From UHGV virus genome UHGV-0123328: a DNA stretch of 34,442 nt; one strand, 5' to 3'. This DNA comes from a virus. Made by a program: the position numbers and the translations under genes. Below the pieces are notes generated by a model that was given only the letters and a program-made list of their open reading frames with translations, made no database searches and was not told the DNA's origin. Positions 13,901 through 34,043 of the stretch are shown piece by piece (the stretch's first letter is position 1; every line of letters begins with the position of its first letter).

Positions 13901-13982
13901 AAACCTCTTTCCTTAGTGCCTTTTGTATGTTATTTGGCTATTATAATAAGTAAGTGATTACTTAGTGGATTGTAGCAATAAA

Positions 13983-14663
13983 ATGGATGTAAAAATCACG
14001 ATTTTGCAGGTTGATGTTGCCAACCTTCGCCCGAATACCTGGAACACCAATTCGGTTGGTGCGCAGAATTTTGAAAAACTGAAAGGTTCTATCGAAAAAT
14101 TGGGCTTTTTTAAGCCAATTTTGGCTCGTGAACTTGAAGATGGATTTTTTGAAATCCTCGGCGGCGAACATCGCTGGCGTGCTGCTATTGAGCAAGGAAT
14201 TTCAACGGTTCCGGTGCTTTCTGTGGGCAAAATTAGCGATGTCGTAGCTAAACAGATGTCACTGGTGGACAACGAGCGATACGGTGAAGACGACCAAATC
14301 GCATTGCAACGCTTCATTGAAGAAATTCAGTCAGAACTTGACTATCAACTGTCTGAAATCGCCCCGTATGACGACGAAATCTCGATGGTTTTAGCAAAAG
14401 AGGCGGCAATCGACCTTGAAGCACTGGAGGCGTTGTCTCGTGGTAGTGATGAGCCTGTCGATACCGACAAACGAGAGAAAACCGAACGTGTCGGTGCGGA
14501 ACATCAGACCATGCGCTTCAAAGTAACTTTCGATGCGTCAGATCGCGTTGCAGAAACCATAAAAAACATCATCAAAGACCAGGCAATTAATACTGGCAAT
14601 GAAATGGAAAACGCTGGTGAGGCTCTGGTGTGGCTGGTCGACTACTACAAGGAGCGTATGTAA
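13983..14663 (+). CDS. ParB/Srx N-terminal-domain protein 1 (227 aa from ATG 13983; ORF track starts at GTG 13965)
   Basis: ParB-like N-terminal signature region (…FEILGGEHRWRAAIEQGISTVPV…); acidic C-terminal half. Confidence 0.65.
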   Translation: MDVKITILQVDVANLRPNTWNTNSVGAQNFEKLKGSIEKLGFFKPILARELEDGFFEILGGEHRWRAAIEQGISTVPVLSVGKISDVVAKQMSLVDNERYGEDDQIALQRFIEEIQSELDYQLSEIAPYDDEISMVLAKEAAIDLEALEALSRGSDEPVDTDKREKTERVGAEHQTMRFKVTFDASDRVAETIKNIIKDQAINTGNEMENAGEALVWLVDYYKERM

Positions 14664-15331
14664 TGACCAAAAAGTTTGAAATCGTATATCGCGACCCGGC
14701 AGATCTTATTCCCTATGAGATGAATGCCAAAAAGCATGATGAACAGCAGATCCGAGATCTGGCCGCAGCCATTAAAAAGCGCGGATTTGACCAGCCAATT
14801 ACGGTCGATAAGAACGACGTAATTATTACTGGCCACGGCCGCCGTGAGGCTGCAATTTTTGCTGGACTTGAGCGCGTACCGGTTATTGTTCGCGATGATC
14901 TCAGTGATGACGAGGTTCGTGCGAAGCGCCTTGAAGATAACCGACTTGCCAGCATTGATTACGATGCAATTAAGCTACAGAAAGAGCTTGAGTCGCTTGT
15001 TCTGGACGATATCGAGGTTTTCGGCTTCGAAGAGCGTGAGTTGAATGTTCTCGTTGGCAGTATGACAGAAGAAATGGACACCGACTCGCTAGTTATCGAT
15101 CTTGGCGAAGAAACTAAACGACAGAAGGATGAACACACCGAGATCAGTCGTGAAGTTGCAGCGGAAGAAGTACGTGTTGTCGACGTATTGGGCTTTAAAA
15201 CGCTCCCTGCTGGCTCTGCCATTGTTGTTGGTGATTTGCTTGCCCATATGGAAGAAATGACGGGAGAAAGCGGGGTAGACGCATTTGTGGCATATGCGGA
15301 GAAGATCTCTTCCGGGGAGATGGCTGCATGA
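14663..15331 (+). CDS. ParB/Srx N-terminal-domain protein 2 (222 aa; ORF track start 14630)
   Basis: …ITGHGRREAAIFAGLERVPVIV… ParB-like motif. ATG overlaps the upstream stop (TAATG), with AAGGAG Shine-Dalgarno. Confidence 0.65.
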   Translation: MTKKFEIVYRDPADLIPYEMNAKKHDEQQIRDLAAAIKKRGFDQPITVDKNDVIITGHGRREAAIFAGLERVPVIVRDDLSDDEVRAKRLEDNRLASIDYDAIKLQKELESLVLDDIEVFGFEERELNVLVGSMTEEMDTDSLVIDLGEETKRQKDEHTEISREVAAEEVRVVDVLGFKTLPAGSAIVVGDLLAHMEEMTGESGVDAFVAYAEKISSGEMAA

Positions 15332-15993
15332 GCAAATACATCATCAACGTATCGTTTCAGACACGCGTAAATAAAACCACGCGCACGTTGGAAATCGCTG
15401 AGTCGTTCGGGCTTGGCCTGGACGAAAAAGAGTGGACGCTTTACGACAATCTGGAGCTGGAAGTGAAGCAGGGCGATGTGGTGTACATCACCGGCCAATC
15501 CGGTTCCGGCAAATCCGTTGTGCTGCGCGAGTTGCAACGACAGATGAAGGATGAAGGGCTGTCTGTAGCCTCCATCGATGATTTTACCTTCGATAATGAG
15601 GTTAACGTCATCGATCAGTTGGGCAAAACGACCAGTGATGCGCTTGGGTTGTTATCTATGGCTGGTCTGAACGATGCATATCTGTTTGTTCGCAAGCCTT
15701 CTGAAATGTCAGACGGCCAGAAATATCGTCTCAAGATTGCCAAACTGATTGAGTCAGGCGCTAAAGTATGGGCTGCTGACGAGTTCGGCGCTGTTCTCGA
15801 CCGTGTAACCGCTCAGGTTGTGGCGTCTAACCTCCAGCGTGCCGCTCGAAAGGTTGGTGCGACGGTAATGGTGGCGACGACTCACGAAGACCTGAAGAAC
15901 GCGCTGCGCCCTGATATGCAGATCACCAAGCACTACAAAGAACGCGTGAAGGTGGAATATCACAATGGTAGTCATGATGAGGTCCATTCATGA
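15328..15993 (+). CDS. Minimal ABC-type ATPase (221 aa, nucleotide-binding domain only)
   Basis: Walker A GQSGSGKS, ABC signature-like MSDGQKYRL, Walker B VWAADEF and H-loop ATTHE in canonical order. Start overlaps the upstream stop (ATGA). Confidence 0.7.
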   Translation: MSKYIINVSFQTRVNKTTRTLEIAESFGLGLDEKEWTLYDNLELEVKQGDVVYITGQSGSGKSVVLRELQRQMKDEGLSVASIDDFTFDNEVNVIDQLGKTTSDALGLLSMAGLNDAYLFVRKPSEMSDGQKYRLKIAKLIESGAKVWAADEFGAVLDRVTAQVVASNLQRAARKVGATVMVATTHEDLKNALRPDMQITKHYKERVKVEYHNGSHDEVHS

Positions 15994-16607
15994 CGGACAT
16001 CATCATTAAACGCTACCGCCCTGAAGAGTTTCCGCGTCATCTGGACTTTCTGGAGCGAATGACTGTTACAAAGGGAACTGTAGAGGACTGGCACGCTCTT
16101 AAGTCGCTTCACTACAAAACAGACGGCAAACCTTTCGCGCCAACTTACTATCGCTGCGAACTTGATGACCGTCTGGTGGGCGTCGTGGTTATGGCTTACC
16201 CGAAACTACTGTTGGCACCTCGCCACCGCATGTTTCCTAAGTTGAAACCAACCACTAATACCACCGTGGCTAACCAGTACTGGGGTCGGTACGTGAATAA
16301 CAACTTTGCGGTGATCAGTCGCTCAGTTGTGGATACTCAGTATCGTGGCGTAGGCGTCTCTTATAGAATGATTAACCTGGTTAGCAGGATGCATGACCGG
16401 CCAATCATTGAGATCCAGTCCTCGATGAGCAAATACAATCCCTTCGCCATGAAAGCAGGGTTTAAGTTCATCCGCCCTGAGCGACCGAAGAGCTATGAAA
16501 GTGCACTGCGTGTATTCCAGCGCCATTTCCGTTCCGACCCGGGTGATAACGAGGCGATCGTCAAAGAGTTGTTCGCAATGAGCGAGTCTCGTCGTCGCCG
16601 TGCGTGA
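15990..16607 (+). CDS. GNAT-fold (acetyltransferase-like) protein (205 aa)
   Basis: Motif-A-like VVDTQYRGVGVSYRMINLV and motif-B-like NPFAMKAGFKFI. Start overlaps the upstream stop (ATGA). Confidence 0.5.
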   Translation: MTDIIIKRYRPEEFPRHLDFLERMTVTKGTVEDWHALKSLHYKTDGKPFAPTYYRCELDDRLVGVVVMAYPKLLLAPRHRMFPKLKPTTNTTVANQYWGRYVNNNFAVISRSVVDTQYRGVGVSYRMINLVSRMHDRPIIEIQSSMSKYNPFAMKAGFKFIRPERPKSYESALRVFQRHFRSDPGDNEAIVKELFAMSESRRRRA

Positions 16608-16875
16608 TCTGGTGGCGGACTACCACAAGAACAGTTCCCTGGCAAAAGCTGGGCGGAATCGTGGCACGACGATTCAGGACATTGCCGACAGTCTGGTGGA
16701 CGAGGCCAGCATTGTGAAGCTGCTCAAGGACATTCACAACCTGAGCTTTACGTCTCCGTTGTATGGTGTGTATCGAAACCCTGACTTTGGTCGTCGACTG
16801 CCTGACACGCTGCCACTGCTGGCATTCGACAAACAACCTTTGGATAAACCGTTGGAAATTGCTTTACCGGCATAA
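16600..16875 (+). CDS. Hypothetical small protein (91 aa, GTG start overlapping the upstream gene by 8 nt)
   Basis: ORF continuing the operon; no recognisable motif. Confidence 0.45.
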   Translation: MRDLVADYHKNSSLAKAGRNRGTTIQDIADSLVDEASIVKLLKDIHNLSFTSPLYGVYRNPDFGRRLPDTLPLLAFDKQPLDKPLEIALPA

Positions 16876-16884
16876 GGATTTGCC

Positions 16885-17151
16885 ATGACGTTAACCGATA
16901 AACAAAAGGACATCATCAAAACGCTCAATCTCGGTTATGAGCGAGGTCATCTACTTGATCTGGACGAATTGCTTGAAGTTTTGCCGTACAAGACAACAAA
17001 GCAAAGTATCCAGTTCTCAATTCGCGCTCTGATAAAAAAGGGGCTGGTGGAGAAAGGGCATACGCGCCAACGCAGTGACAATCGCTATCACCGCCGGACT
17101 CTTGGGTTAACCACTTTAGGTCGAGCCAAAGCGAAGTTACTGGTGATGTAA
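16885..17151 (+). CDS. Small basic protein with a possible helix-turn-helix (88 aa); candidate regulator
   Basis: ORF 10 nt after the previous gene; the segment TTKQSIQFSIRALIKKGLV resembles an HTH recognition helix. Sits immediately upstream of the large palindrome and packaging genes. Confidence 0.45.
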   Translation: MTLTDKQKDIIKTLNLGYERGHLLDLDELLEVLPYKTTKQSIQFSIRALIKKGLVEKGHTRQRSDNRYHRRTLGLTTLGRAKAKLLVM

Positions 17152-17175
17152 TCGGTCTGGGAGCTTATTTAAAGA

Positions 17176-17230
17176 CCTGCTTCTGTATATATAAATAATA
17201 AGTAACTTATTAAATATATACGGAAGCAGG
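17176..17230. promoter_or_regulatory. Large imperfect palindrome (about 27-bp arms, CCTGCTTC…GGAAGCAGG) centred on AATAAGTAACTTATT
   Basis: Arms CCTGCTTCTGTATATATAAATAATAAGT and ACTTATTAAATATATACGGAAGCAGG. Located between the regulator-like gene and the small terminase gene. Confidence 0.6.
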
Positions 17231-17347
17231 CTTAGTAAGACATGCCCAGACCTAATTAAACACCCCAGAAAACAAGTTGGTTAGCAGATGCAGTAAACAA
17301 GTTGTTTTAGAGCGCATGGACGCGCTCTGTGTGTTTTAGAGGGATCT

Positions 17348-17980
17348 ATGACGGTCGAAAAAGACGAGGTAAAAACTCGCCTGACACCAGCGGAGTGGGC
17401 CGAAGCTGAAGCCAAATGGACGTCAGGCGAATATACACTCTCAAAGCTGGAGGAAGAGTACGGCATTCGTCGTGAAACACTCTCCAGACATTTCAAAAAG
17501 CGAGGATTAGAGAAAGGCGCGGACTCTGTTGGGAAGATGGTTCGTGAGTCTCTTAAATCTGACGCAGAGCTTCGCGCTAAAGCCCGTGCGGAAAAGATAG
17601 AAGAACGTCGTACACGTTATGACGGCTGGGCGTATGCGTTGGGGCAGATGGTGATGGTCGAAGTCACTACGGCCAAACGTGAGGGTAAGCCTTTAGGGGC
17701 GATTGAGGATTCTCTCAAGAGCTTACAGAGAGCCAGTAATACCCTTGCAAAATGCTTTGAAGTTTCGTCCAAAGCATTGGGCATGGATCATGCGGAAAAT
17801 GACGAGGAAGAAATTCCGAACCTGGTATTTGGTGAGCTTACGCCTTCCCAGGTGGCGAAATTACGTCAGGAAGACGACGAGCCTGAAATCATCGATGACG
17901 AATTGCTTGAGACGTTGGAAGAAGAAGCTCTAAGCGAATTTGATGCGACAGATGATGGAAGTGAAGGGGAGGACGAATAA
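17348..17980 (+). CDS. Terminase small subunit (210 aa), putative
   Basis: Immediately upstream of and overlapping the large terminase (TAATG). N-terminal helix-turn-helix-like segment (YTLSKLEEEYGIRRETLSRHFKKRG) and strongly acidic C-terminus. Confidence 0.6.
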   Translation: MTVEKDEVKTRLTPAEWAEAEAKWTSGEYTLSKLEEEYGIRRETLSRHFKKRGLEKGADSVGKMVRESLKSDAELRAKARAEKIEERRTRYDGWAYALGQMVMVEVTTAKREGKPLGAIEDSLKSLQRASNTLAKCFEVSSKALGMDHAENDEEEIPNLVFGELTPSQVAKLRQEDDEPEIIDDELLETLEEEALSEFDATDDGSEGEDE

Positions 17981-19236
17981 TGGCAATCCCGTCCTCGCTC
18001 AGTCTTGTGCAACTGCATTCTGGACAGATGAAAGTCTTCCAGTCTCCGCATCGATTTAAAGTTGTTTGTGCTGGTCGACGCTGGGGAAAATCCCGGTTGT
18101 CGATCTCCACTATTATTCGTGCGGCGGCAAAGGAAAAAAAGCAAAGAGTCTGGTATGTCGCTCCTACTTACCAGATGGCTCGCCAGATTTTGTGGGACGA
18201 TCTACAGGAAGTTCTGCCTCGTAAGTGGGTTAGGAAAAAGAACGACACCACGATGACAATCGTGTTGAAGAACGGTTCGGAGATCGCCCTCAAAGGTGCT
18301 GATAAGCCTGACACTCTGCGCGGCGTAGCGTTGCATTTTGTAGTGCTTGATGAATTTCAGGATATGAAGGCTGACACCTGGTACAAGGTGTTACGACCTA
18401 CTCTTTCATCGACACGCGGCGGTGCACTGATCATTGGTACGCCAAAAGGCTTCTCGGAATTTCACAAACTGTGGACTATAGGCCAGAACGTAGAGCTGCA
18501 AAGAAAGGGACAGTGGAAGAGCTGGCAGTTTGTAACTGCCGATTCTCCGTTTGTACCTACGGCGGAAATTGAAGCTGCTAAGAACGATATGGACCCGAAA
18601 TCGTTCGCTCAGGAGTACCTGGCGAGCTTTGAGAACATGTCAGGGCGCGTTTACTACCCGTTCGATCGTAACGTGCATGTAAAACCGCTTCAGTTCAACC
18701 CTCGGTTGCCTATATGGGTAGGGCAGGACTTCAACATTGACCCGATGTCTTCAGTAATTTTGCAACCTCAGCCAAATGGTGAGCTATGGGCAATTGATGA
18801 ATTGGTGCTCTTTTCCTCTAACACGGCAGAGGTTTGTGATGAGCTTGAGAGACGCTTCTGGCGCTGGAAATCACAGATAACGGTATTTCCAGATCCGGCA
18901 GGTGCTTATCGCCAACATGCTCGCGGGGAGTCTGACGTCGACATATTCAAAGAGAAGGGATTCTTACGTGTCGATTATTCGAAAAAGCACCCGCCAATTG
19001 CGGATCGTGTTAATGCTGTTAACCGAATGCTGATGACCGCATCTGGAGATATCCGGCTGTATATCGATCCGAAGTGCAAGCATTTGATTGATTCACTGGA
19101 AAAAGTCATCTACAAGCCTGGAACACGAGATATGGATAAGACAGGTGGCATTGAGCATAGTGCAGACGCATTGGGCTATCCAGTACATCGTAGGTATCCA
19201 GTCAAAAACCGTGTTATTCTTGGTGGTTCTCGATAG
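17980..19236 (+). CDS. Terminase large subunit (418 aa)
   Basis: Walker A VCAGRRWGKS and Walker B HFVVLDEF in the N-terminal ATPase; Asp-rich RNase H-like C-terminal nuclease region; position before the portal gene. Confidence 0.85.
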   Translation: MAIPSSLSLVQLHSGQMKVFQSPHRFKVVCAGRRWGKSRLSISTIIRAAAKEKKQRVWYVAPTYQMARQILWDDLQEVLPRKWVRKKNDTTMTIVLKNGSEIALKGADKPDTLRGVALHFVVLDEFQDMKADTWYKVLRPTLSSTRGGALIIGTPKGFSEFHKLWTIGQNVELQRKGQWKSWQFVTADSPFVPTAEIEAAKNDMDPKSFAQEYLASFENMSGRVYYPFDRNVHVKPLQFNPRLPIWVGQDFNIDPMSSVILQPQPNGELWAIDELVLFSSNTAEVCDELERRFWRWKSQITVFPDPAGAYRQHARGESDVDIFKEKGFLRVDYSKKHPPIADRVNAVNRMLMTASGDIRLYIDPKCKHLIDSLEKVIYKPGTRDMDKTGGIEHSADALGYPVHRRYPVKNRVILGGSR

Positions 19237-19262: not shown

Positions 19263-20837
19263 ATGGAATTGAACGACAAACAAATTAAGGATCTGGTGGC
19301 GCGACGCCACCCGGAATACGAAAAGAAAAAAGAACATTGGGACTTCCTCGCCAGCACTTACGCTGGCGGGCGTGGTTGGTTTACAGACAATATCTTTCGT
19401 TACTTTAAAGAGGGAGATCAGGAGTTTAAGGAGCGAGTTGAACGTGCTTATCGCTTCAACCACACTCGTGAGGTGGTAAACCTCATCAACAAATATCTCT
19501 TTAAAGAAGACATTCATAGAAATATCGAAGAGGCACCAGAGCAGATCCGCAATTTCTGGAAACGTGCGACTCGCCAGAATGCCTCTATTGACTCATTTAT
19601 GGCCGCTATTGATTTGCAGTCGTCTATTTACGGTCGCATATGGGTTGTTGTCGATAGCACGATGAGTGGTGATGTTGAGTCAGTAGCTGACGAGAAAAAG
19701 AAAGATGCTCGCGCCTACGCCTACTGGATTTCACCTCAGCAAATGCTGGATGTGGCATGGGACGACGACGGGAATATGTTGTGGGCGTTAATTGTGGAAG
19801 TCGCTCGTGATGACGCAGATCCTTTTACTTCTACAGGTCAGGAATACCAACGTTATCGTCTGTGGACACAAAACGAGTGGTATCTGTTCCGCGAGGAAGT
19901 GAAGAAGGGCGCTGGTGGAGCAGGTCGCCGTCAGGCAAAAGTTATTTTAGAGGATAGCGGTGAGCATAATCTCGGCGTAGTTCCTGTGTTTCCTGTTGAT
20001 TGTATTGGAGAAAGTGAATCACCGTATTTCAGCCCATCGTTGATCGATGATATCGCTTATCTTGATCGTGCGGTTGCAAACTATCTGTCAAACCTTGATG
20101 CCATTATTCAGGATCAGACATTTAGCCAGTTGGCTATACCGGTACAGTCGCTTTTACCTGGTGATGAAAACCACACTAAAGTGCTTGAAATGGGCACAAA
20201 GCGAGTCTTCACCTACGATTCTGAAGGTGGAAACCAGCCGTTTTATCTGTCACCAGACCCGAAACAAGCTCAGATGATCATCACTACGATTAAGACGGTG
20301 ATTAACGAAATCTACCATTCAGTTGGTGTAGCTGGTGAGCGAACGAAGCAGGACAACGCACAGGGAATCGATAATTCATCTGGTGCCGCAAAAATGTATG
20401 ACTTCCAGCGTGTAAATAGCTTGCTTGTCACAAAAGCAGAGCGTCTGGAAAGGGCTGAACGCCAAATCATGCTACTGGTTGCGAAATGGATGGGGGCAGA
20501 TCTGGACGAAGACCACTCTTTAATTGCGTATCCAGAAAGTTTCGATATTCGTGGCCTTACTGATGAATTTTCTGTTGCCGAGAAACTGTCATTACTTCAG
20601 GCACCGGACTCTGTACGTCGTCACCAGATGGAAATGCTTATTGAGAAGATTTTCCCGAACATTACTGAGGCGATGAAAAAGGAATTTGATAAAGATCTCT
20701 TGAATTTTCCTCCAAAAAATGATCTAAATACCCTTGAAAATAAGTCAGTACTTACTTATGATCGTGGTACGGCCCAAGAAAGCGGGCAAGATCAACCCCG
20801 AGGGAATGGGGACTCATCTACTCAAGAGAACGAGTGA
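19263..20837 (+). CDS. Portal protein (524 aa)
   Basis: Size and position directly after the large terminase; acidic C-terminal tail. Confidence 0.75.
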   Translation: MELNDKQIKDLVARRHPEYEKKKEHWDFLASTYAGGRGWFTDNIFRYFKEGDQEFKERVERAYRFNHTREVVNLINKYLFKEDIHRNIEEAPEQIRNFWKRATRQNASIDSFMAAIDLQSSIYGRIWVVVDSTMSGDVESVADEKKKDARAYAYWISPQQMLDVAWDDDGNMLWALIVEVARDDADPFTSTGQEYQRYRLWTQNEWYLFREEVKKGAGGAGRRQAKVILEDSGEHNLGVVPVFPVDCIGESESPYFSPSLIDDIAYLDRAVANYLSNLDAIIQDQTFSQLAIPVQSLLPGDENHTKVLEMGTKRVFTYDSEGGNQPFYLSPDPKQAQMIITTIKTVINEIYHSVGVAGERTKQDNAQGIDNSSGAAKMYDFQRVNSLLVTKAERLERAERQIMLLVAKWMGADLDEDHSLIAYPESFDIRGLTDEFSVAEKLSLLQAPDSVRRHQMEMLIEKIFPNITEAMKKEFDKDLLNFPPKNDLNTLENKSVLTYDRGTAQESGQDQPRGNGDSSTQENE

Positions 20838-27516: not shown

Positions 27517-30500
27517 ATGTCACAAAACGTAGAGTTTATCCTGTCGCTGGAAGACAAACAGTTTACAGCGTCAATCGATCGTGCGGGGAAACTGCTTACT
27601 CGATTTGGTGAGCAGGTAACAAAGCCTGCTCAAAAAATCCAAACCTTTGAACGCTCTTTGGGTTCGGTCGCCCGTATCATTGGCGTTCTGGAAAGCAAGC
27701 TCGATTCTACGGCAGATAAACTACAGGATGTAGCTGCCGGTTTTGAGCTTGCTTCAGATGCTACGCGTAAAATGCGTGGCAACATCACCAGCCTCAATTC
27801 TGGTCTTAAAGCCCTGATTGAGCGCGTCGATACGACAACTTCTTCAGTAGATAAACTCACCGCGTCATTACGTAAAGTGCAATCAGAGCTAAATGATTTC
27901 TCTGATTGGGCGACCTATGCAAGCAAAAGCGCAAGCCGCTTTGGTACGGAGGTCAAAGAAGCCTCTGCGTCCGTGAGTGGCATGAATACGCGCCTTAATA
28001 CCACGACGAAGCGACTCAGTAATTGGGGTGTCACAACGAGTCAGGCTGCCGAGGGACTGAAAAAGGTTCGTGAGCAGATGGACGAAGTTATCGGACGTCA
28101 GCAACTGATTAGCAAGCCGGTACGCGTTCGTACATCTGGAAGTGGCGATGGTGGTAGCGGGCGGCGTAGCGGCGCTTCTGGCCATAGCGGTAAAAGTAAC
28201 GAAGGAGGTATGTTCTCTGGCCTTCGTGGCAACATTTTCCTGCTTGGCGAGATCGGAGATGCAGCCAGAACGGTTACTGACATCATGTTTGGGTGGCAGA
28301 AGCCTATTGTTGAAGCTGCGGCCGAAATGGAACGTATGCGGGTGATGCTTCGAGGGTTGAATAAGGAGAAGTCCAACCCGGGCCAGGCTGCCGCTGATGA
28401 TATGAAGTACATCGTAGACATGGCGCAAAATGCGCCGTTCGCGATGCAGGCGTTAACAGATTCCTTCGTGAAGTTTCGTTCTGCTGGCTTAGATCCAACC
28501 GATGGTTCTCTGAAGGCGCTGGTGGACTCCGTTGCTCGTTTTGGTGGTGATAGTGAGCTGTTGAAACGTGCGGCTGTGGCCGTTCAGCAGATGTCCGGTA
28601 AGGGCGTTGTGTCAATGGAAGAGCTACGTCAGCAATTAGGTGAAGCCGTTCCTAACGCGATGCAGGCAATGGCAGACGCCGCAGGCATCACTATGGGGGA
28701 ACTGACTAAAGCCGTTGCCAGCGGTACGGTTGAGGCAAAACAGGCGTTGTCTCTGATGTTTGTTGGTCTGCGTGCGGAGAATGAGAACGCAGCGAAAGAC
28801 ATGATGCAAACCTACACAGGTGCGCTGGCGCAACTTCAGACGTCATTCACGTTATTTGCTGATCGGGTTGGTCAGGCCGGATATCTGGATTCTCTATCGA
28901 AGGGGATGAAAGAACTGGCTTCAATCATGAATAGCGCCGAAGGGATTTCGTTTGCCAATTCTTTAGGTTCGGGGTTAACAACGGCAATCGATGGGTTGCG
29001 TCAGCTTGCTCAATGGTTAGCAAAGAACCAAGAGCTGGTGATTAATCTCGGTAAGGTCGTGGCCGCGATGGTTGCGTTCAAACTGATGCGAGCAGGGATC
29101 ATGGGGGTAGTTGGCGCAGGCAGCCAGATGGTTAGCACCTTTGCCACGATGGCGACCGCCATACAGACTCCATTTAACCTCGGCGCTACAGCAGTAACCC
29201 GATTCAATCGTGCGGCACGTATGGGGCTGGCTCCGATCCCCTCTCTTATTTTCGCCATCCGTGGGGCGATTACGGGGCTTAAAGGCGCTTTTGCTGGCCT
29301 GACTGCGTTTATTGCGGCGAATCCGATAGGTTTTGTTTTCACTGCTGCAATGACCGCTGTTGCTGGCTTAATCACGTATATGACCATGCTTCGTAGCGAA
29401 ACTTCAAAGGTCGTTGACGAGATTAGGAAAATACCAGAAGCGATGACGGCGGCTAAACGTGCACAGATGGCCGAGTATAAAGCGCGTCTTGAGCAACAAA
29501 TCACGCAAAAGGAACAAGAGTTAAAATCTGGCGAAAAGGTGGTTTATGGGCCGGGTATGGCCGGAACTACAGTAAAGATTAATCATGATGAACGTAAGCG
29601 AATAGAAAATGAGCTAAATGAACTTCGTAAGAAACGCGATGAAACCAATGAAACTATTGCCAGAGGGGATTTGGCTGTAGCCAAACGTCTGGCAAAAGAG
29701 ACGGCAGAATCCCAGATAGAGAAAATACTCGAAGAGAATAGAGACTTTGCGGCAACGTTCGTGAAAGCTCGTCAGGAGGCTCTGGAGAAAATCCAGAAAA
29801 TCAAGGATGACGGTTCACTTTCGGATGACGAAAAGAACAAGCTATTGGCACCGTTACGTGAAACGGTAAACAAAAGCTATCTGGAGCCTGCGCAAAAACT
29901 GGTTGATTCACTTTCTTCTCGTAAGAATGCGACCGAGAAGCAAATCGCGACTCTTAATGATCAGCTTGAAAAAGCGAAAAAGGAAGGAAATACCGAGCAG
30001 ATTCAGAAACTGCAAGGAAGTATTCGTGGCTATCAGGAGCATTTGGAAGTCGTTGCTCAGGAACTGACTCAGGCAGAGTTTAAGAGGGATAACGCGGCCA
30101 AAAGTGGTAATGGCTTAGTGTCAATCAATGGAGATGTTCTTGGGTTAGGTACAACTGATAAAGCTGCTCAGAAGGCGCTGGCGCAATATATGCGAAACCA
30201 GATGGATTCTGCGACTTATCAACGTACTTTGCCTGACGGCACTCCGATGATGGACTTCGAAGGTAAGCCGATTATTGGGCCTAAACAACTCAAGACGCAG
30301 CTTAATTTGCAGAAAGCATCCAGCGCCAGCTCTCTGGAGAAAATGAGCGATGAAGAGCGTGCCGCAGCCATTGCTGCACTGACTAAAGCTCGTGAACAGG
30401 ATGCAGCAGCTGCCGAGAAAGCAGCCCAACGATCAGCTAACGCCTCGCAGCGTGCGGCCAAGAAGGAACAGGCAGCGCAACAGAAACTGGCAGCCGGATA

Positions 30501-32094
30501 CCAGAAGGCTCTGGACAAAGCCGATCAGCTTATGGGGCAAATGGGTGAAAGCTCTAAGGCTACGGTATCGTTTGATCAGTCTCTTCGCGATACAACGAAA
30601 TCGCTGACAGATTTGGCTAATGCGGTTCCTAACGAGTTCATCACTCAAGAGATGATCGACAAGGCGAAAAAACGTCTTGAAGACCTCAAAAATGCGACAC
30701 CTGAATATCGCGAGATGTTTAATCGCCGCAATGTTGAGCAGATGATCTCCACTTGGGCACCGAAGGCGGATTCCATTATTAGTGCTGGCTATACGCCGTC
30801 TCGCGAAGAGAAAGTTGCTGATTTCGAAGACACCTACAACCGCAATCTCAAAGCGTTGATAGAACTTCGTGATAAGGCGTCTGATCCTAAAGTTGTGGCG
30901 CTTTATACAAAGAAAATCAATCAACTGATTGCTGCTGGCAATACCGCGCTTATTAAAGAGACGGGGACTGCGACGCAGAAGTTGGCACTGGAATACGAAA
31001 ACCTGGCAGAGCAGATCGAAAGCACCTGGACTGATTTGTTTAGTGGCTTAACTGATGTCCTGACTGATTTCGTTATTAACGGGAAGATGAGCTTCTCCAG
31101 CCTATCTCAGTCCATTTTGAAAGATATCACCAATATGGTCGTGAAGTCGCAGATCACGCTGCCTCTAATGAACATGTTGGGGATGGGAACCACCGCAGCT
31201 GGTAGTTCACAGAGTGGTAATTTGCTCACCGGGGTTGCTTCCGCAGTTGCCAATCAAGGTGTGCGCATAAGCAACACTGTTAATGGCGACAAGTCGGTAG
31301 GAGAAGCCACGAAGGAGACGTCCAGTTCGGTAACTGGATTGGGGCAAACGACACAGCAGACCACCAGCGCAATTGGCACAGCAACAAATGCGATTGGTAG
31401 CTGGGTATCAGGGCTATTTGATAGCACCGAAGCCAAAGATGCTGAGACAAAAGCAGTGAAGGATTCCATCTTCTCGATGCAGAACCTCAGCTCTGTTACC
31501 GGCGCTCTGTCTGCCGCGTTTGCAATGCTTGGAGCTAATGCTTCCGGCTCTGGTAATAAGTGGTTGAATTTCGGCGCGACAGTTGCATCTGGTTTGGTTT
31601 CAGTATGGGCTGGTGGTGGATTCGATGGATTGATGTCCGGTTCTTCTGGCTCAACTTCCGGGTTCAACAATCTGACCAGTTCTGCTGCCGATGGCACGAA
31701 TGGCATTCCTGCAATTCCGAAGTTTGCAAATGGTGGCATATTCGGAAAAGACGGCGTGATCCCGCTCCGGGCATACCAGAAAGGCGGTATCGCCAACTCA
31801 CCTCAATTGGCGTTGTTTGGGGAAGGCGATATGAATGAGGCGTATGTTCCATTGCCTGATGGTCGAACAATCCCTGTAACGCTCAGTACCGATGGTATGA
31901 GTGGAGGAGGAAATGTTCTTTCTCCGGTATCAATTGAGATCAACGTCCATAGTGACGGTAGCACAACTGAATCCGGCGATACAGAAAGCATATGGAACAA
32001 TGCCGCTCAACGGATGAAAGCAATCGCGCTTGAGACTATCGCTCAAGAGAAACGCCCTGGCGGATCACTCAACCCAAACACTCAACGTAACTAA
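27517..32094 (+). CDS. Tail tape measure protein (about 1525 aa from ATG 27517; ORF track starts at TTG 27496)
   Basis: Very long ORF with coiled-coil-rich segments and Gly/Ala-rich hydrophobic stretches, between the G/GT and M/L/K/I genes. Confidence 0.85.
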   Translation: MSQNVEFILSLEDKQFTASIDRAGKLLTRFGEQVTKPAQKIQTFERSLGSVARIIGVLESKLDSTADKLQDVAAGFELASDATRKMRGNITSLNSGLKALIERVDTTTSSVDKLTASLRKVQSELNDFSDWATYASKSASRFGTEVKEASASVSGMNTRLNTTTKRLSNWGVTTSQAAEGLKKVREQMDEVIGRQQLISKPVRVRTSGSGDGGSGRRSGASGHSGKSNEGGMFSGLRGNIFLLGEIGDAARTVTDIMFGWQKPIVEAAAEMERMRVMLRGLNKEKSNPGQAAADDMKYIVDMAQNAPFAMQALTDSFVKFRSAGLDPTDGSLKALVDSVARFGGDSELLKRAAVAVQQMSGKGVVSMEELRQQLGEAVPNAMQAMADAAGITMGELTKAVASGTVEAKQALSLMFVGLRAENENAAKDMMQTYTGALAQLQTSFTLFADRVGQAGYLDSLSKGMKELASIMNSAEGISFANSLGSGLTTAIDGLRQLAQWLAKNQELVINLGKVVAAMVAFKLMRAGIMGVVGAGSQMVSTFATMATAIQTPFNLGATAVTRFNRAARMGLAPIPSLIFAIRGAITGLKGAFAGLTAFIAANPIGFVFTAAMTAVAGLITYMTMLRSETSKVVDEIRKIPEAMTAAKRAQMAEYKARLEQQITQKEQELKSGEKVVYGPGMAGTTVKINHDERKRIENELNELRKKRDETNETIARGDLAVAKRLAKETAESQIEKILEENRDFAATFVKARQEALEKIQKIKDDGSLSDDEKNKLLAPLRETVNKSYLEPAQKLVDSLSSRKNATEKQIATLNDQLEKAKKEGNTEQIQKLQGSIRGYQEHLEVVAQELTQAEFKRDNAAKSGNGLVSINGDVLGLGTTDKAAQKALAQYMRNQMDSATYQRTLPDGTPMMDFEGKPIIGPKQLKTQLNLQKASSASSLEKMSDEERAAAIAALTKAREQDAAAAEKAAQRSANASQRAAKKEQAAQQKLAAGYQKALDKADQLMGQMGESSKATVSFDQSLRDTTKSLTDLANAVPNEFITQEMIDKAKKRLEDLKNATPEYREMFNRRNVEQMISTWAPKADSIISAGYTPSREEKVADFEDTYNRNLKALIELRDKASDPKVVALYTKKINQLIAAGNTALIKETGTATQKLALEYENLAEQIESTWTDLFSGLTDVLTDFVINGKMSFSSLSQSILKDITNMVVKSQITLPLMNMLGMGTTAAGSSQSGNLLTGVASAVANQGVRISNTVNGDKSVGEATKETSSSVTGLGQTTQQTTSAIGTATNAIGSWVSGLFDSTEAKDAETKAVKDSIFSMQNLSSVTGALSAAFAMLGANASGSGNKWLNFGATVASGLVSVWAGGGFDGLMSGSSGSTSGFNNLTSSAADGTNGIPAIPKFANGGIFGKDGVIPLRAYQKGGIANSPQLALFGEGDMNEAYVPLPDGRTIPVTLSTDGMSGGGNVLSPVSIEINVHSDGSTTESGDTESIWNNAAQRMKAIALETIAQEKRPGGSLNPNTQRN

Positions 32095-33253: not shown

Positions 33254-34043
33254 TAAAGCAATCCCTGAGCTTGGCTCTGATGTTATGCAGCAAATCTATC
33301 TCTGCGCCATAAATCGCTACCCTAATGAAGCGTGTGGCTTTCTGGTGAGAACTAATGGCGACAAATATCGCTTTATGGAAGCGCGAAATGTTTCGGAGAA
33401 CCCGCAGAACACTTTTGTAATGCACGTTGACGACATTATGGCGGCGGAGGATGCAGGTGACGTAATCGCAATCTGGCATTCACATACTGATGAATCAGCA
33501 GAAGCATCTGATGCCGATCGTGCAGGCTGTGAAGCGACGGAAGTTCCGTGGATGATTCTGGCTATTCGCAAGAATGTTGAGGGAGATGCCCCTTTCCATT
33601 TTAGCGAGATGAATGTGATCACACCTGATGGTTTCGAAATGCCATACCTGGGCAGACCGTATGTATTTGGCGTATTCGATTGCTGGATGTTGTGTCGGGA
33701 CTATTTGAAGCGTGAGTTTAACGTCGAACTAAACCCGAACGCACACCTGCATATTCCATCGTGGTACACCGGCGATAACGACATTCTCGATCAGAACTAC
33801 CGTAACGAGGGATTGGTGCGTCTTGCGCCCGGAACAGAGCCTCAACGTGGGGACATCTTCTTTATCCAATACGGGAAAATGCCTGACCACTGCGCGGTTT
33901 ATATCGGCGATGGAATGATTCTTCATCACCAGATCGACCGCCTTAGTTGTCGTGCTTATTACGGCGGAATGTATCAGAAACATACGACGCATCACTTGCG
34001 TCACAGAGACTTGCTCAAGGGAGATGAGACGTGTCTGAGTTAG
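33219..34043 (+). CDS. Tail tip protein (lambda gpK-like) with MPN/JAMM-like and NlpC/P60-like motifs (alternative start ATG 33246)
   Basis: AIWHSHTDESAEASD (H-x-H…D JAMM-like) in the N-terminal half and a Cys-containing FDCWMLC in the C-terminal half; overlaps the L-like gene. Confidence 0.75.
   Translation: MAGLLELRDMGNKAIPELGSDVMQQIYLCAINRYPNEACGFLVRTNGDKYRFMEARNVSENPQNTFVMHVDDIMAAEDAGDVIAIWHSHTDESAEASDADRAGCEATEVPWMILAIRKNVEGDAPFHFSEMNVITPDGFEMPYLGRPYVFGVFDCWMLCRDYLKREFNVELNPNAHLHIPSWYTGDNDILDQNYRNEGLVRLAPGTEPQRGDIFFIQYGKMPDHCAVYIGDGMILHHQIDRLSCRAYYGGMYQKHTTHHLRHRDLLKGDETCLS

Follow-up and report, generated by a model that had tools for sequence, protein, structure and literature searches.

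Conserved elements in the region upstream of the terminase genes in an SSU5-like phage-plasmid of Escherichia coli

SSU5-type phage-plasmids are common in Escherichia coli, Salmonella, Klebsiella and Yersinia, some of them carrying resistance genes, and how they switch between the plasmid state and the production of virions has hardly been studied. How, then, is the onset of the packaging genes set in such an element? The question is raised by a short noncoding region in the virus genome UHGV-0123328, a stretch of 34,442 nucleotides (nt) referred to here as the window. The window comes from an SSU5-like phage-plasmid of E. coli with 99% identity to Cyrano/pLF82, and the region lies between an 88-amino-acid (aa) gene (16885-17151) and a 210-aa gene (17348-17980), the candidate for the small terminase gene terS. 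A preliminary description made from the letters alone had proposed a complex control region before the packaging genes, composed of a palindrome, a repeated motif and a leader hairpin; all three features were found to be present and conserved.

A three-part region upstream of terS

The features of the region, as they follow each other from left to right, are the following.

17154-17252, no strand assigned: composite nested palindrome of about 100 bp, copy c1, whose fold pairs outer and inner arms
17176-17230, no strand assigned: inner 55-bp palindrome, with arms CCTGCTTCTGTATATAT (17176-17192) and ATATATACGGAAGCAGG (17214-17230)
17253-17258, plus strand: TAATTA, a -10-like hexamer 11 nt 5' of operator 1; putative terS promoter, weak by sigma-70 standards
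17266-17282, plus strand: operator-like unit 1, CAGAAAACAAGTTGGTT, containing an imperfect palindrome at 17270-17282
17291-17307, plus strand: operator-like unit 2, CAGTAAACAAGTTGTTT, containing the perfect palindrome AAACAAGTTGTTT at 17295-17307
17308-17329, plus strand: leader RNA hairpin, TAGAGCGC-ATGGAC-GCGCTCTG, with an ANGGAN hexaloop at 17316-17321 and its GGA at 17318-17320
17330-17339, plus strand: U-rich tail TGTGTTTTAG, not conserved in more distant relatives
17339-17344, plus strand: Shine-Dalgarno sequence GAGGGA, holding a second GGA (17342-17344) 24 nt past the loop GGA; the ATG is at 17348

The reading that we favour, tentatively and with slightly less than even confidence, is that the region forms the junction of two rightward transcription units, at which a boundary hairpin is followed by repressible promoter-operators and then by a hairpin for translational control. 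Each of the three modules is most likely a local copy of a wider element family or kind, and ordinary in kind. The elements exist in the copy number, at the positions and with the conservation and covariation given below, and in SSU5-type phage-plasmids these element families appear to be undescribed in the literature searched.

The nested palindrome and its paralogues

The 55-bp imperfect palindrome of the preliminary description was confirmed, and it proved to be the core of a larger structure. The outer arms of c1, GGTCTGGG (17154-17161) and CCCAGACC (17245-17252), are nested around an inner palindrome that has 17-nt arms, a centre at 17204 and an A/T-rich, largely self-complementary interior. 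Folded as RNA, the inner palindrome gave 24 pairs and -27.7 kcal/mol, while the fold of the entire intergenic region had a z score of -8.3, a value equalled by none of 200 shuffles. Among 40 distinct relatives the inner palindrome was nearly invariant and the flanks were variable. The c1 elements of Cyrano and SSU5 share 93% identity, whereas the flanks match at 18 of 30 and 13 of 33 positions. Farther from the window (Xenorhabdus, Morganella, Photobacterium and other relatives), the same place is taken by a large inverted repeat that is likewise rich in A/T but has other arm sequences.

A scan of the complete Cyrano genome revealed three copies of the c1 type, and three orthologous copies were present in SSU5. 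The arms of the family follow the pattern CCTGCTTC(T/C)GTATAT ... ATATAC(G/A)GAAGCAGG. Besides c1, the copies in these two genomes, together with those of a more diverged plasmid, are as follows.

Cyrano, 31159-31211: copy c2, starting 25 nt past the last gene of the parA block
Cyrano, 78084-78138: copy c3, starting 24 nt past the adenine-methylase gene
SSU5, 33458-33513 and 78304-78360: the paralogous copies
Klebsiella oxytoca pCAV1099-111 (L222-L224), 20678-20760, 56252-56420 and 108533-108580: the three copies of this plasmid

In Cyrano and SSU5 every copy begins 23-28 nt after the stop codon that closes a block of rightward genes, with 136-147 nt between the centre of the copy and the next ATG downstream (144 nt from the c1 centre to the terS ATG). 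Similar outer motifs flank every copy, GGTCTGG-like on the left and CCAGAC-like on the right, and T-runs follow c2 and c3 (TCTTTT and CTGTTTT, respectively). In Cyrano c2 another sequence has taken the place of the left flank and nevertheless pairs with the right flank, in a different register. The interior is best conserved in c1, at 92% compared to 81% and 50% for the other two copies.

We propose that the palindrome of about 100 bp acts as an operon-boundary element. Its transcript would form a long, GC-clamped hairpin that ends, processes or insulates upstream transcription, and the three copies stand at the ends of three large rightward blocks, one of them preceding terS, one behind the parA block and one behind the adenine-methylase gene. 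Since the arm sequence itself is conserved, a sequence-specific partner is probably involved. Phage T7 carries several RNase III processing hairpins between its transcription units, and the palindromes resemble these, as well as bidirectional intrinsic terminators, in being long, sequence-related intergenic hairpins made of a lower stem, an internal loop and an upper stem. They differ in that there are only three copies, with a very A/T-rich interior, and in that c1 is devoid of a T-run in this lineage; here cleavage and termination are putative.

Several observations weigh against this proposal. In the window the stem of c1 is followed by CTTAG with no T-run, so that c1 is not a canonical intrinsic terminator here; in several other lineages c1 does carry a T-run, such as the T8 of the K. 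oxytoca type. In K. oxytoca itself c2 and c3 are only half-palindromes that have a direct repeat of about 55 nt in common, which points to sequence recognition and not to pure structure. The arm mismatches were compared by strand for wobble pairs: in c1 and c2 most changes are compatible with U-G, whereas SSU5 c3 has C-A mismatches, and overall the types of mismatch do not clearly favour a plus-strand RNA over selection on the DNA. Apart from these points, the Rfam search of the whole window gave no family above the gathering threshold, and around the palindrome only microRNA-like matches far below it.

An alternative that we consider doubtful is that c1 is, or contains, the site at which the terminase recognises and cuts the DNA (a cos site, or a pac or direct-terminal-repeat boundary). 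TerS would then bind nearby and TerL would cut the A/T-rich interior beside the right arm, while c2 and c3, which lack the flanking recognition sequence, would stay uncut. In accordance with such a role, c1 lies directly 5' of terS and terL, has the best-conserved interior of the three copies and, unlike c2 and c3, has no T-run in the main lineages. Furthermore, the linear GenBank record of the virion-derived SSU5 starts at the equivalent of window position 17213, and its two ends abut inside the palindrome with zero bases lost or duplicated. An independent metagenome contig begins at 17214, the first base of the conserved right arm, and another one ends at 17209. The likeness to lambda-like cos regions, which consist of cosN and cosB 5' of the small terminase gene, extends to a partly symmetric site about 140 bp 5' of terS, to short repeats between the two, and to the one virion-derived record that starts there.

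The argument from uniqueness fails, however, because there are three copies per genome, and this weakens the case for a cos or pac site, even though the differing flanks could leave the function unique to c1. The short repeats also set the region apart from lambda-like cos, since they belong to a genome-wide promoter-proximal family and are not specific to terS. For their part, the record ends are open to another explanation. The Cyrano record is that of pLF82 re-oriented to match SSU5; its start was thus copied from SSU5 and is not independent evidence. Assemblies of plasmid-state DNA break at c1 too, and because short-read and metagenome contigs also break there, the start of the SSU5 record may be an assembly artefact. 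One such contig, NZ_PYMI01000008.1 of Photobacterium ganghwense (L090, 148 kb), starts inside the homologous palindrome. Public assemblies also contain 'partial' versions of the 88-aa protein that are truncated at the C terminus (65-87 aa; at least 20 distinct ones), whose contigs stop 3-70 nt before the stop codon (window 17080-17148), just left of c1. The two metagenome contigs are each about 30 kb long, nearly the 31.2 kb that separate c1 from c2 in Cyrano, and were probably broken at both palindromes. As these palindromes break short-read assemblies, record and contig starts at c1 should not be taken as genome ends.

The terminase itself is no guide in this matter. Outside the family, the nearest relatives of TerL share 25-40% identity with it, and those at about 25% include phages that we take to be T1-, Jersey- and T5-like. 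Phages of these types package by headful or with long terminal repeats, so TerL homology neither predicts a cos site nor settles the packaging mode. No report on the virion termini of SSU5-type phages was found in the literature searched.

Three side observations concern the same sites. The contig end of L090, whose TerS is 48% identical, lies (positions 1-30) inside a palindrome that is rich in A/T, has a similar right arm (TGGAAGCAAGG) and is situated 273 nt 5' of terS. On the c3 side, at least one C-terminally truncated form of the adenine methylase was recorded; clustering differs between the searches, and the numbers of breaks at c3 and c1 are therefore not comparable. Finally, near-identical elements from E. 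coli (L010, L017, L028, L031 and L063) differ by TA, AT or TG insertions or deletions within the (TA)n of the arms (17184-17216), suggesting that this sequence is prone to slippage.

It is also possible, but unlikely in our judgement, that the three palindromes, instead of being RNA structures, are bound as DNA by a protein of the plasmid or phage. One option is that they are dispersed sites of a centromere-like or silencing kind, comparable to those of N15 SopB or RK2 KorB, and another that they are sites for the 88-aa winged-helix protein or the upstream ParB_N proteins. The arm sequence, beyond mere pairing, is conserved across copies and lineages, and in K. oxytoca pCAV1099-111 the same altered arm, TATCCAGAGCA(A/C)GG, is found in all three copies, two of which are not real hairpins. 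Such a concerted change argues against three independent terminators and for either a common sequence-specific partner or gene conversion. The surroundings of the copies point in the same direction: c1 follows an operon that encodes two ParB_N proteins and a winged-helix protein, and c2 ends the parA operon, directly 3' of the gene for the small ParA partner in K. oxytoca. Judging from the sequences, c2 closes the parA block in three lineages, an arrangement consistent with centromere-like sites, where several palindromes occur and one of them is associated with par genes. Palindromes scattered over a phage-plasmid, with one beside the par genes, are likewise a trait of the dispersed centromere sites of N15, although the arms here are unrelated in sequence. 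Against a DNA site, gene conversion among the copies could equally explain the concerted change, and neither the recognition helix of the 88-aa protein nor the putative ribbon-helix-helix strand of the ParA partner differs much between lineages that have different arms. In addition, the place of the copies relative to the preceding stop codon is fixed throughout, as would suit a role at the transcript level.

Other functions considered for the palindromes were rejected. A protelomerase target of the telRL type, as in N15, does not agree with SSU5-type plasmid records being circular, with the three copies per genome or with the Cyrano, SSU5 and K. oxytoca records, in which no protelomerase is annotated. 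A LexA box was discarded by inspection: CTGTATAT occurs in each arm, but the second half-site is absent at the right spacing. A replication origin located by skew was dismissed too, as the GC skew stays positive over nearly the whole genome and does not switch at any of the palindromes.

The promoter-proximal motif and the leader hairpin

Between c1 and the leader hairpin, the preliminary description had placed two copies of the motif AAACA-N3-TGTTT. The downstream copy is indeed perfect, whereas the upstream one is imperfect (AAACAAGTTGGTT). The units that contain them form a 17-nt direct repeat with a spacing of 25 nt. Unit 1 is absent from the Klebsiella pneumoniae lineage by a clean 25-nt deletion, indicating that one operator is enough.

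The motif is not confined to this locus. Allowing at most 1 mismatch, 11 sites were observed in the window compared to 2.25 expected, and none of 100 shuffles reached 11. Similar excesses were found in Cyrano (25 against 5.1 expected), SSU5 (22 against 3.0) and the K. oxytoca plasmid (24 against 3.6). In Cyrano 17 of the 25 sites are intergenic, while intergenic DNA makes up 13% of the genome. The sites, whose extended consensus is AGA-AAACAANTTGTTT, lie 11-40 nt 5' of plus-strand start codons and 9-14 nt 3' of an A/T hexamer. This hexamer is -10-like, being part of TGnGATAAT at small early genes and TAATTA at the helicase gene and at operator 1 of terS. All three lineages (Cyrano, SSU5 and K. 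oxytoca pCAV1099-111) have orthologous sites 40 nt before terS, 30-35 nt before parA and 19 nt before the helicase gene, and a site 31-32 nt upstream of nrdB is conserved in Cyrano and SSU5.

Both the over-representation and the intergenic, promoter-proximal placement make the motif operator-like, as the preliminary description had supposed, and suggest that it serves a repressor with a genome-wide regulon. As RNA the motif would give a marginal 5-bp hairpin, so that a DNA site for a dimeric protein, lying over the transcript start, is the simplest reading. According to this model, terS would be controlled by a weak promoter whose transcript start is overlain by one or two palindromic operators of 13 bp. 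The same promoter-operator cassette would precede some 15-20 other genes, among them parA, the helicase gene, nrdB and many small early genes, and one dimeric DNA-binding protein, for which several annotated regulators are candidates, would repress all the cassettes, that of the packaging (late) operon included. Weighing against it, the sigma-70 scan passed no promoter at terS, and the promoter is thus proposed only by analogy with the other motif sites. The binding partners and regulatory outcomes that we name for this junction, for all three modules, are inferred.

The asymmetric C1 operators of phage P1 and the 13-bp O_B sites of RK2 KorB are dispersed operators of global repressors. The motif resembles them in being short, in occurring about 20 times per plasmid-like genome of about 100 kb, and in lying near the promoters of many unrelated operons, including a partition gene. 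It is unrelated to them in sequence, is located at about +5 to +20 and is also found before the packaging operon.

Further sites in the window front small plus-strand genes, at 1356, 1407, 3447, 4644, 5128, 6031, 6781 and 7266; most of them are 13-14 nt past an extended -10 (TGnGATAAT) and 10-25 nt before the ATG. With regard to the parA site, the occurrence of the AAACAAGTTGTTT motif 30-35 nt before parA in three lineages suggests that a partition protein possibly reads it. As a side observation, the small partner of the 222-aa ParA (Cyrano 29307-30334, L097; SSU5 30497-31521, L100) has a ribbon-helix-helix-like sequence pattern, as judged by eye.

A more far-reaching conjecture, to which we give little credence, joins the three nested palindromes, perhaps with the 13-bp AAACAANTTGTTT sites (at least 20), into a genome-wide DNA-protein network specific to SSU5-type phage-plasmids. 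By analogy with KorB or N15 SopB, a partition or ParB-like factor may in that case both segregate the plasmid and silence the phage operons, and c1 might in addition be the place at which the genome is opened by the terminase, where the right arm begins.

The third module, the leader hairpin, was present as the preliminary description had it, except that it starts at 17308, about 2 nt to the left of the start given there. It is a stable, GC-rich stem-loop of 8 pairs (-13.0 kcal/mol). When 14 sequences that have diverged were aligned, both partners had changed in 5 of 7 stem pairs, some pairs were G-U, and 92.9% of the cells were paired. Neither the covariation score nor the percentage of paired cells was reached in any of 500 shuffles, and controls in which the stem was slid paired at 21-55%. 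RNAalifold predicted the same helix. The GGA of the loop is invariant in the 14 sequences, which have the hexaloops AUGGAC, AAGGAU and AAGGAA, and TAGAGGGA at the Shine-Dalgarno sequence is kept in 13 of them. An alternative pairing through the TGTTTTAGAG direct repeat (17303 and 17332) was rejected as too weak and not conserved.

High-affinity sites of CsrA/RsmE have GGA in the ANGGAN hexaloop of a hairpin, and in glgC a hairpin-loop site and a Shine-Dalgarno site are bridged by CsrA over 10-63 nt (PMC7652899). The terS leader has the corresponding elements, with GGA in an ANGGAN hexaloop and a second GGA that overlaps the Shine-Dalgarno sequence within that range. By this analogy, the match of the hexaloop and of the GGA located 24 nt further on to the glgC layout favours translational control over termination of transcription. 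The GGA of the loop and that of the ribosome-binding site would form a two-site target, through which CsrA, or another factor that reads the loop, would control the translation of terS. As in the glgC-type CsrA leaders of E. coli, the hairpin stands just 5' of the ribosome-binding site; in contrast to them, the stem is longer and richer in GC, the target is the terminase gene of a phage-plasmid, and CsrA binding is putative. A point against CsrA is that the stem, with 6-8 GC-rich pairs, is more stable than those of typical CsrA ligands obtained by SELEX (PMC7652899).

The preliminary description had instead seen a terminator-like structure, reminiscent of late expression controlled by antitermination, and this was not supported. 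On such an account the hairpin and its U-tract would be an intrinsic terminator or attenuator, and late expression would need an antiterminator, possibly the 88-aa protein, which we regard as improbable. It is true that the stem is stable, at -13 kcal/mol, that a scan scored the hairpin as terminator-like (8 pairs plus TGTGTTTTAG), and that the lineages of E. coli, Salmonella and K. pneumoniae all have the UGUGUUUU tail. Nevertheless, the run of four U begins 7 nt past the stem, and it is missing in relatives that keep the hairpin (L086 and L091-L093); where the stem has changed in a compensatory manner, the U-tract is replaced by TGGTGGTTTAG, TATTGGCTAG, AGCGGGATTAG or TAAGAGG. The loop sequence is under selection, for which a terminator has no need, and one terminator-like match in 1.5 kb is what chance gives (shuffle mean, 1.4). 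Nor was there a recognisable antiterminator, protein or RNA, as would be expected of a late operon of the lambda Q/N or HK022 put type: the MarR-like DNA-binding fold of the 88-aa protein is unlike known antiterminators, and the Rfam search of the window gave no nut-, put- or qut-like family. The leader hairpin is thus probably a conserved RNA structure and not a terminator, as far as the aligned sequences tell.

Taken as candidate cis elements for the switch between plasmid life and virion production, the three modules offer an operator regulon of about 20 sites, with parA, replication genes and the packaging operon among its members; three conserved palindromes, as proposed boundaries, dividing the genome into three blocks; and, by analogy with glgC, a possible link between the host CsrA system and the synthesis of the terminase.

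Genomic setting and neighbouring genes

Segment 16600-18000 of the window showed 98.4-99.5% identity to Escherichia phages CMS-2020a and PhiR41_1, 99.9% to Cyrano over the portion that its record covers, and about 78% to Klebsiella relatives and to Salmonella phage SSU5. The genes on either side of the junction are the following.

16885-17151, plus strand: 88-aa gene, an open reading frame of PHROG 900 (function unknown); terminal gene of the conserved upstream block
17348-17980, plus strand: terS candidate of 210 aa, an open reading frame of PHROG 867 ('DNA binding domain')
17980-19236, plus strand: terL, large terminase subunit (Pfam Terminase_6N, 3.1e-09; PHROG terminase large subunit)

The AlphaFold model of the 88-aa protein had a predicted local distance difference test score (pLDDT) of 80.5 and a predicted template modelling score (pTM) of 0.70. 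With Foldseek it matched winged-helix proteins of the MepR, MarR and AF1382 kind, with template modelling (TM) scores of 0.67-0.78. According to the model, the protein is a minimal MarR-like winged helix and a predicted DNA binder, in agreement with the regulator-like gene of the preliminary description.

The stop codon of the terS candidate overlaps the start of terL, for which a Terminase_6C match was also found slightly below the cutoff. In the model of the 210-aa protein there is a helix-turn-helix at the N terminus, together with a long coiled coil and an acidic tail; searching by sequence and by fold brought up no significant relative of solved structure, only generic helix-turn-helix matches. 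Based on its position and architecture, we consider the protein a candidate TerS.

All relatives, down to 50% TerS identity, have the genes in one and the same order: ParB_N, ParB_N, ATP-binding cassette (ABC) ATPase, X, 296 aa, 88 aa, gap, terS, terL, portal. The operon at 13965-17151, always 5' of terS in the family, encodes two ParB_N-domain proteins, an ABC-type ATPase, one or two unknown proteins and the winged-helix protein. Within it, at about 16601, the window has a 5-nt deletion (TGCAT) with respect to CYRAN_122 of Cyrano, which splits the conserved 296-aa gene into open reading frames 15990-16607 and 16600-16875 and is either a frameshift mutation or a sequencing error.

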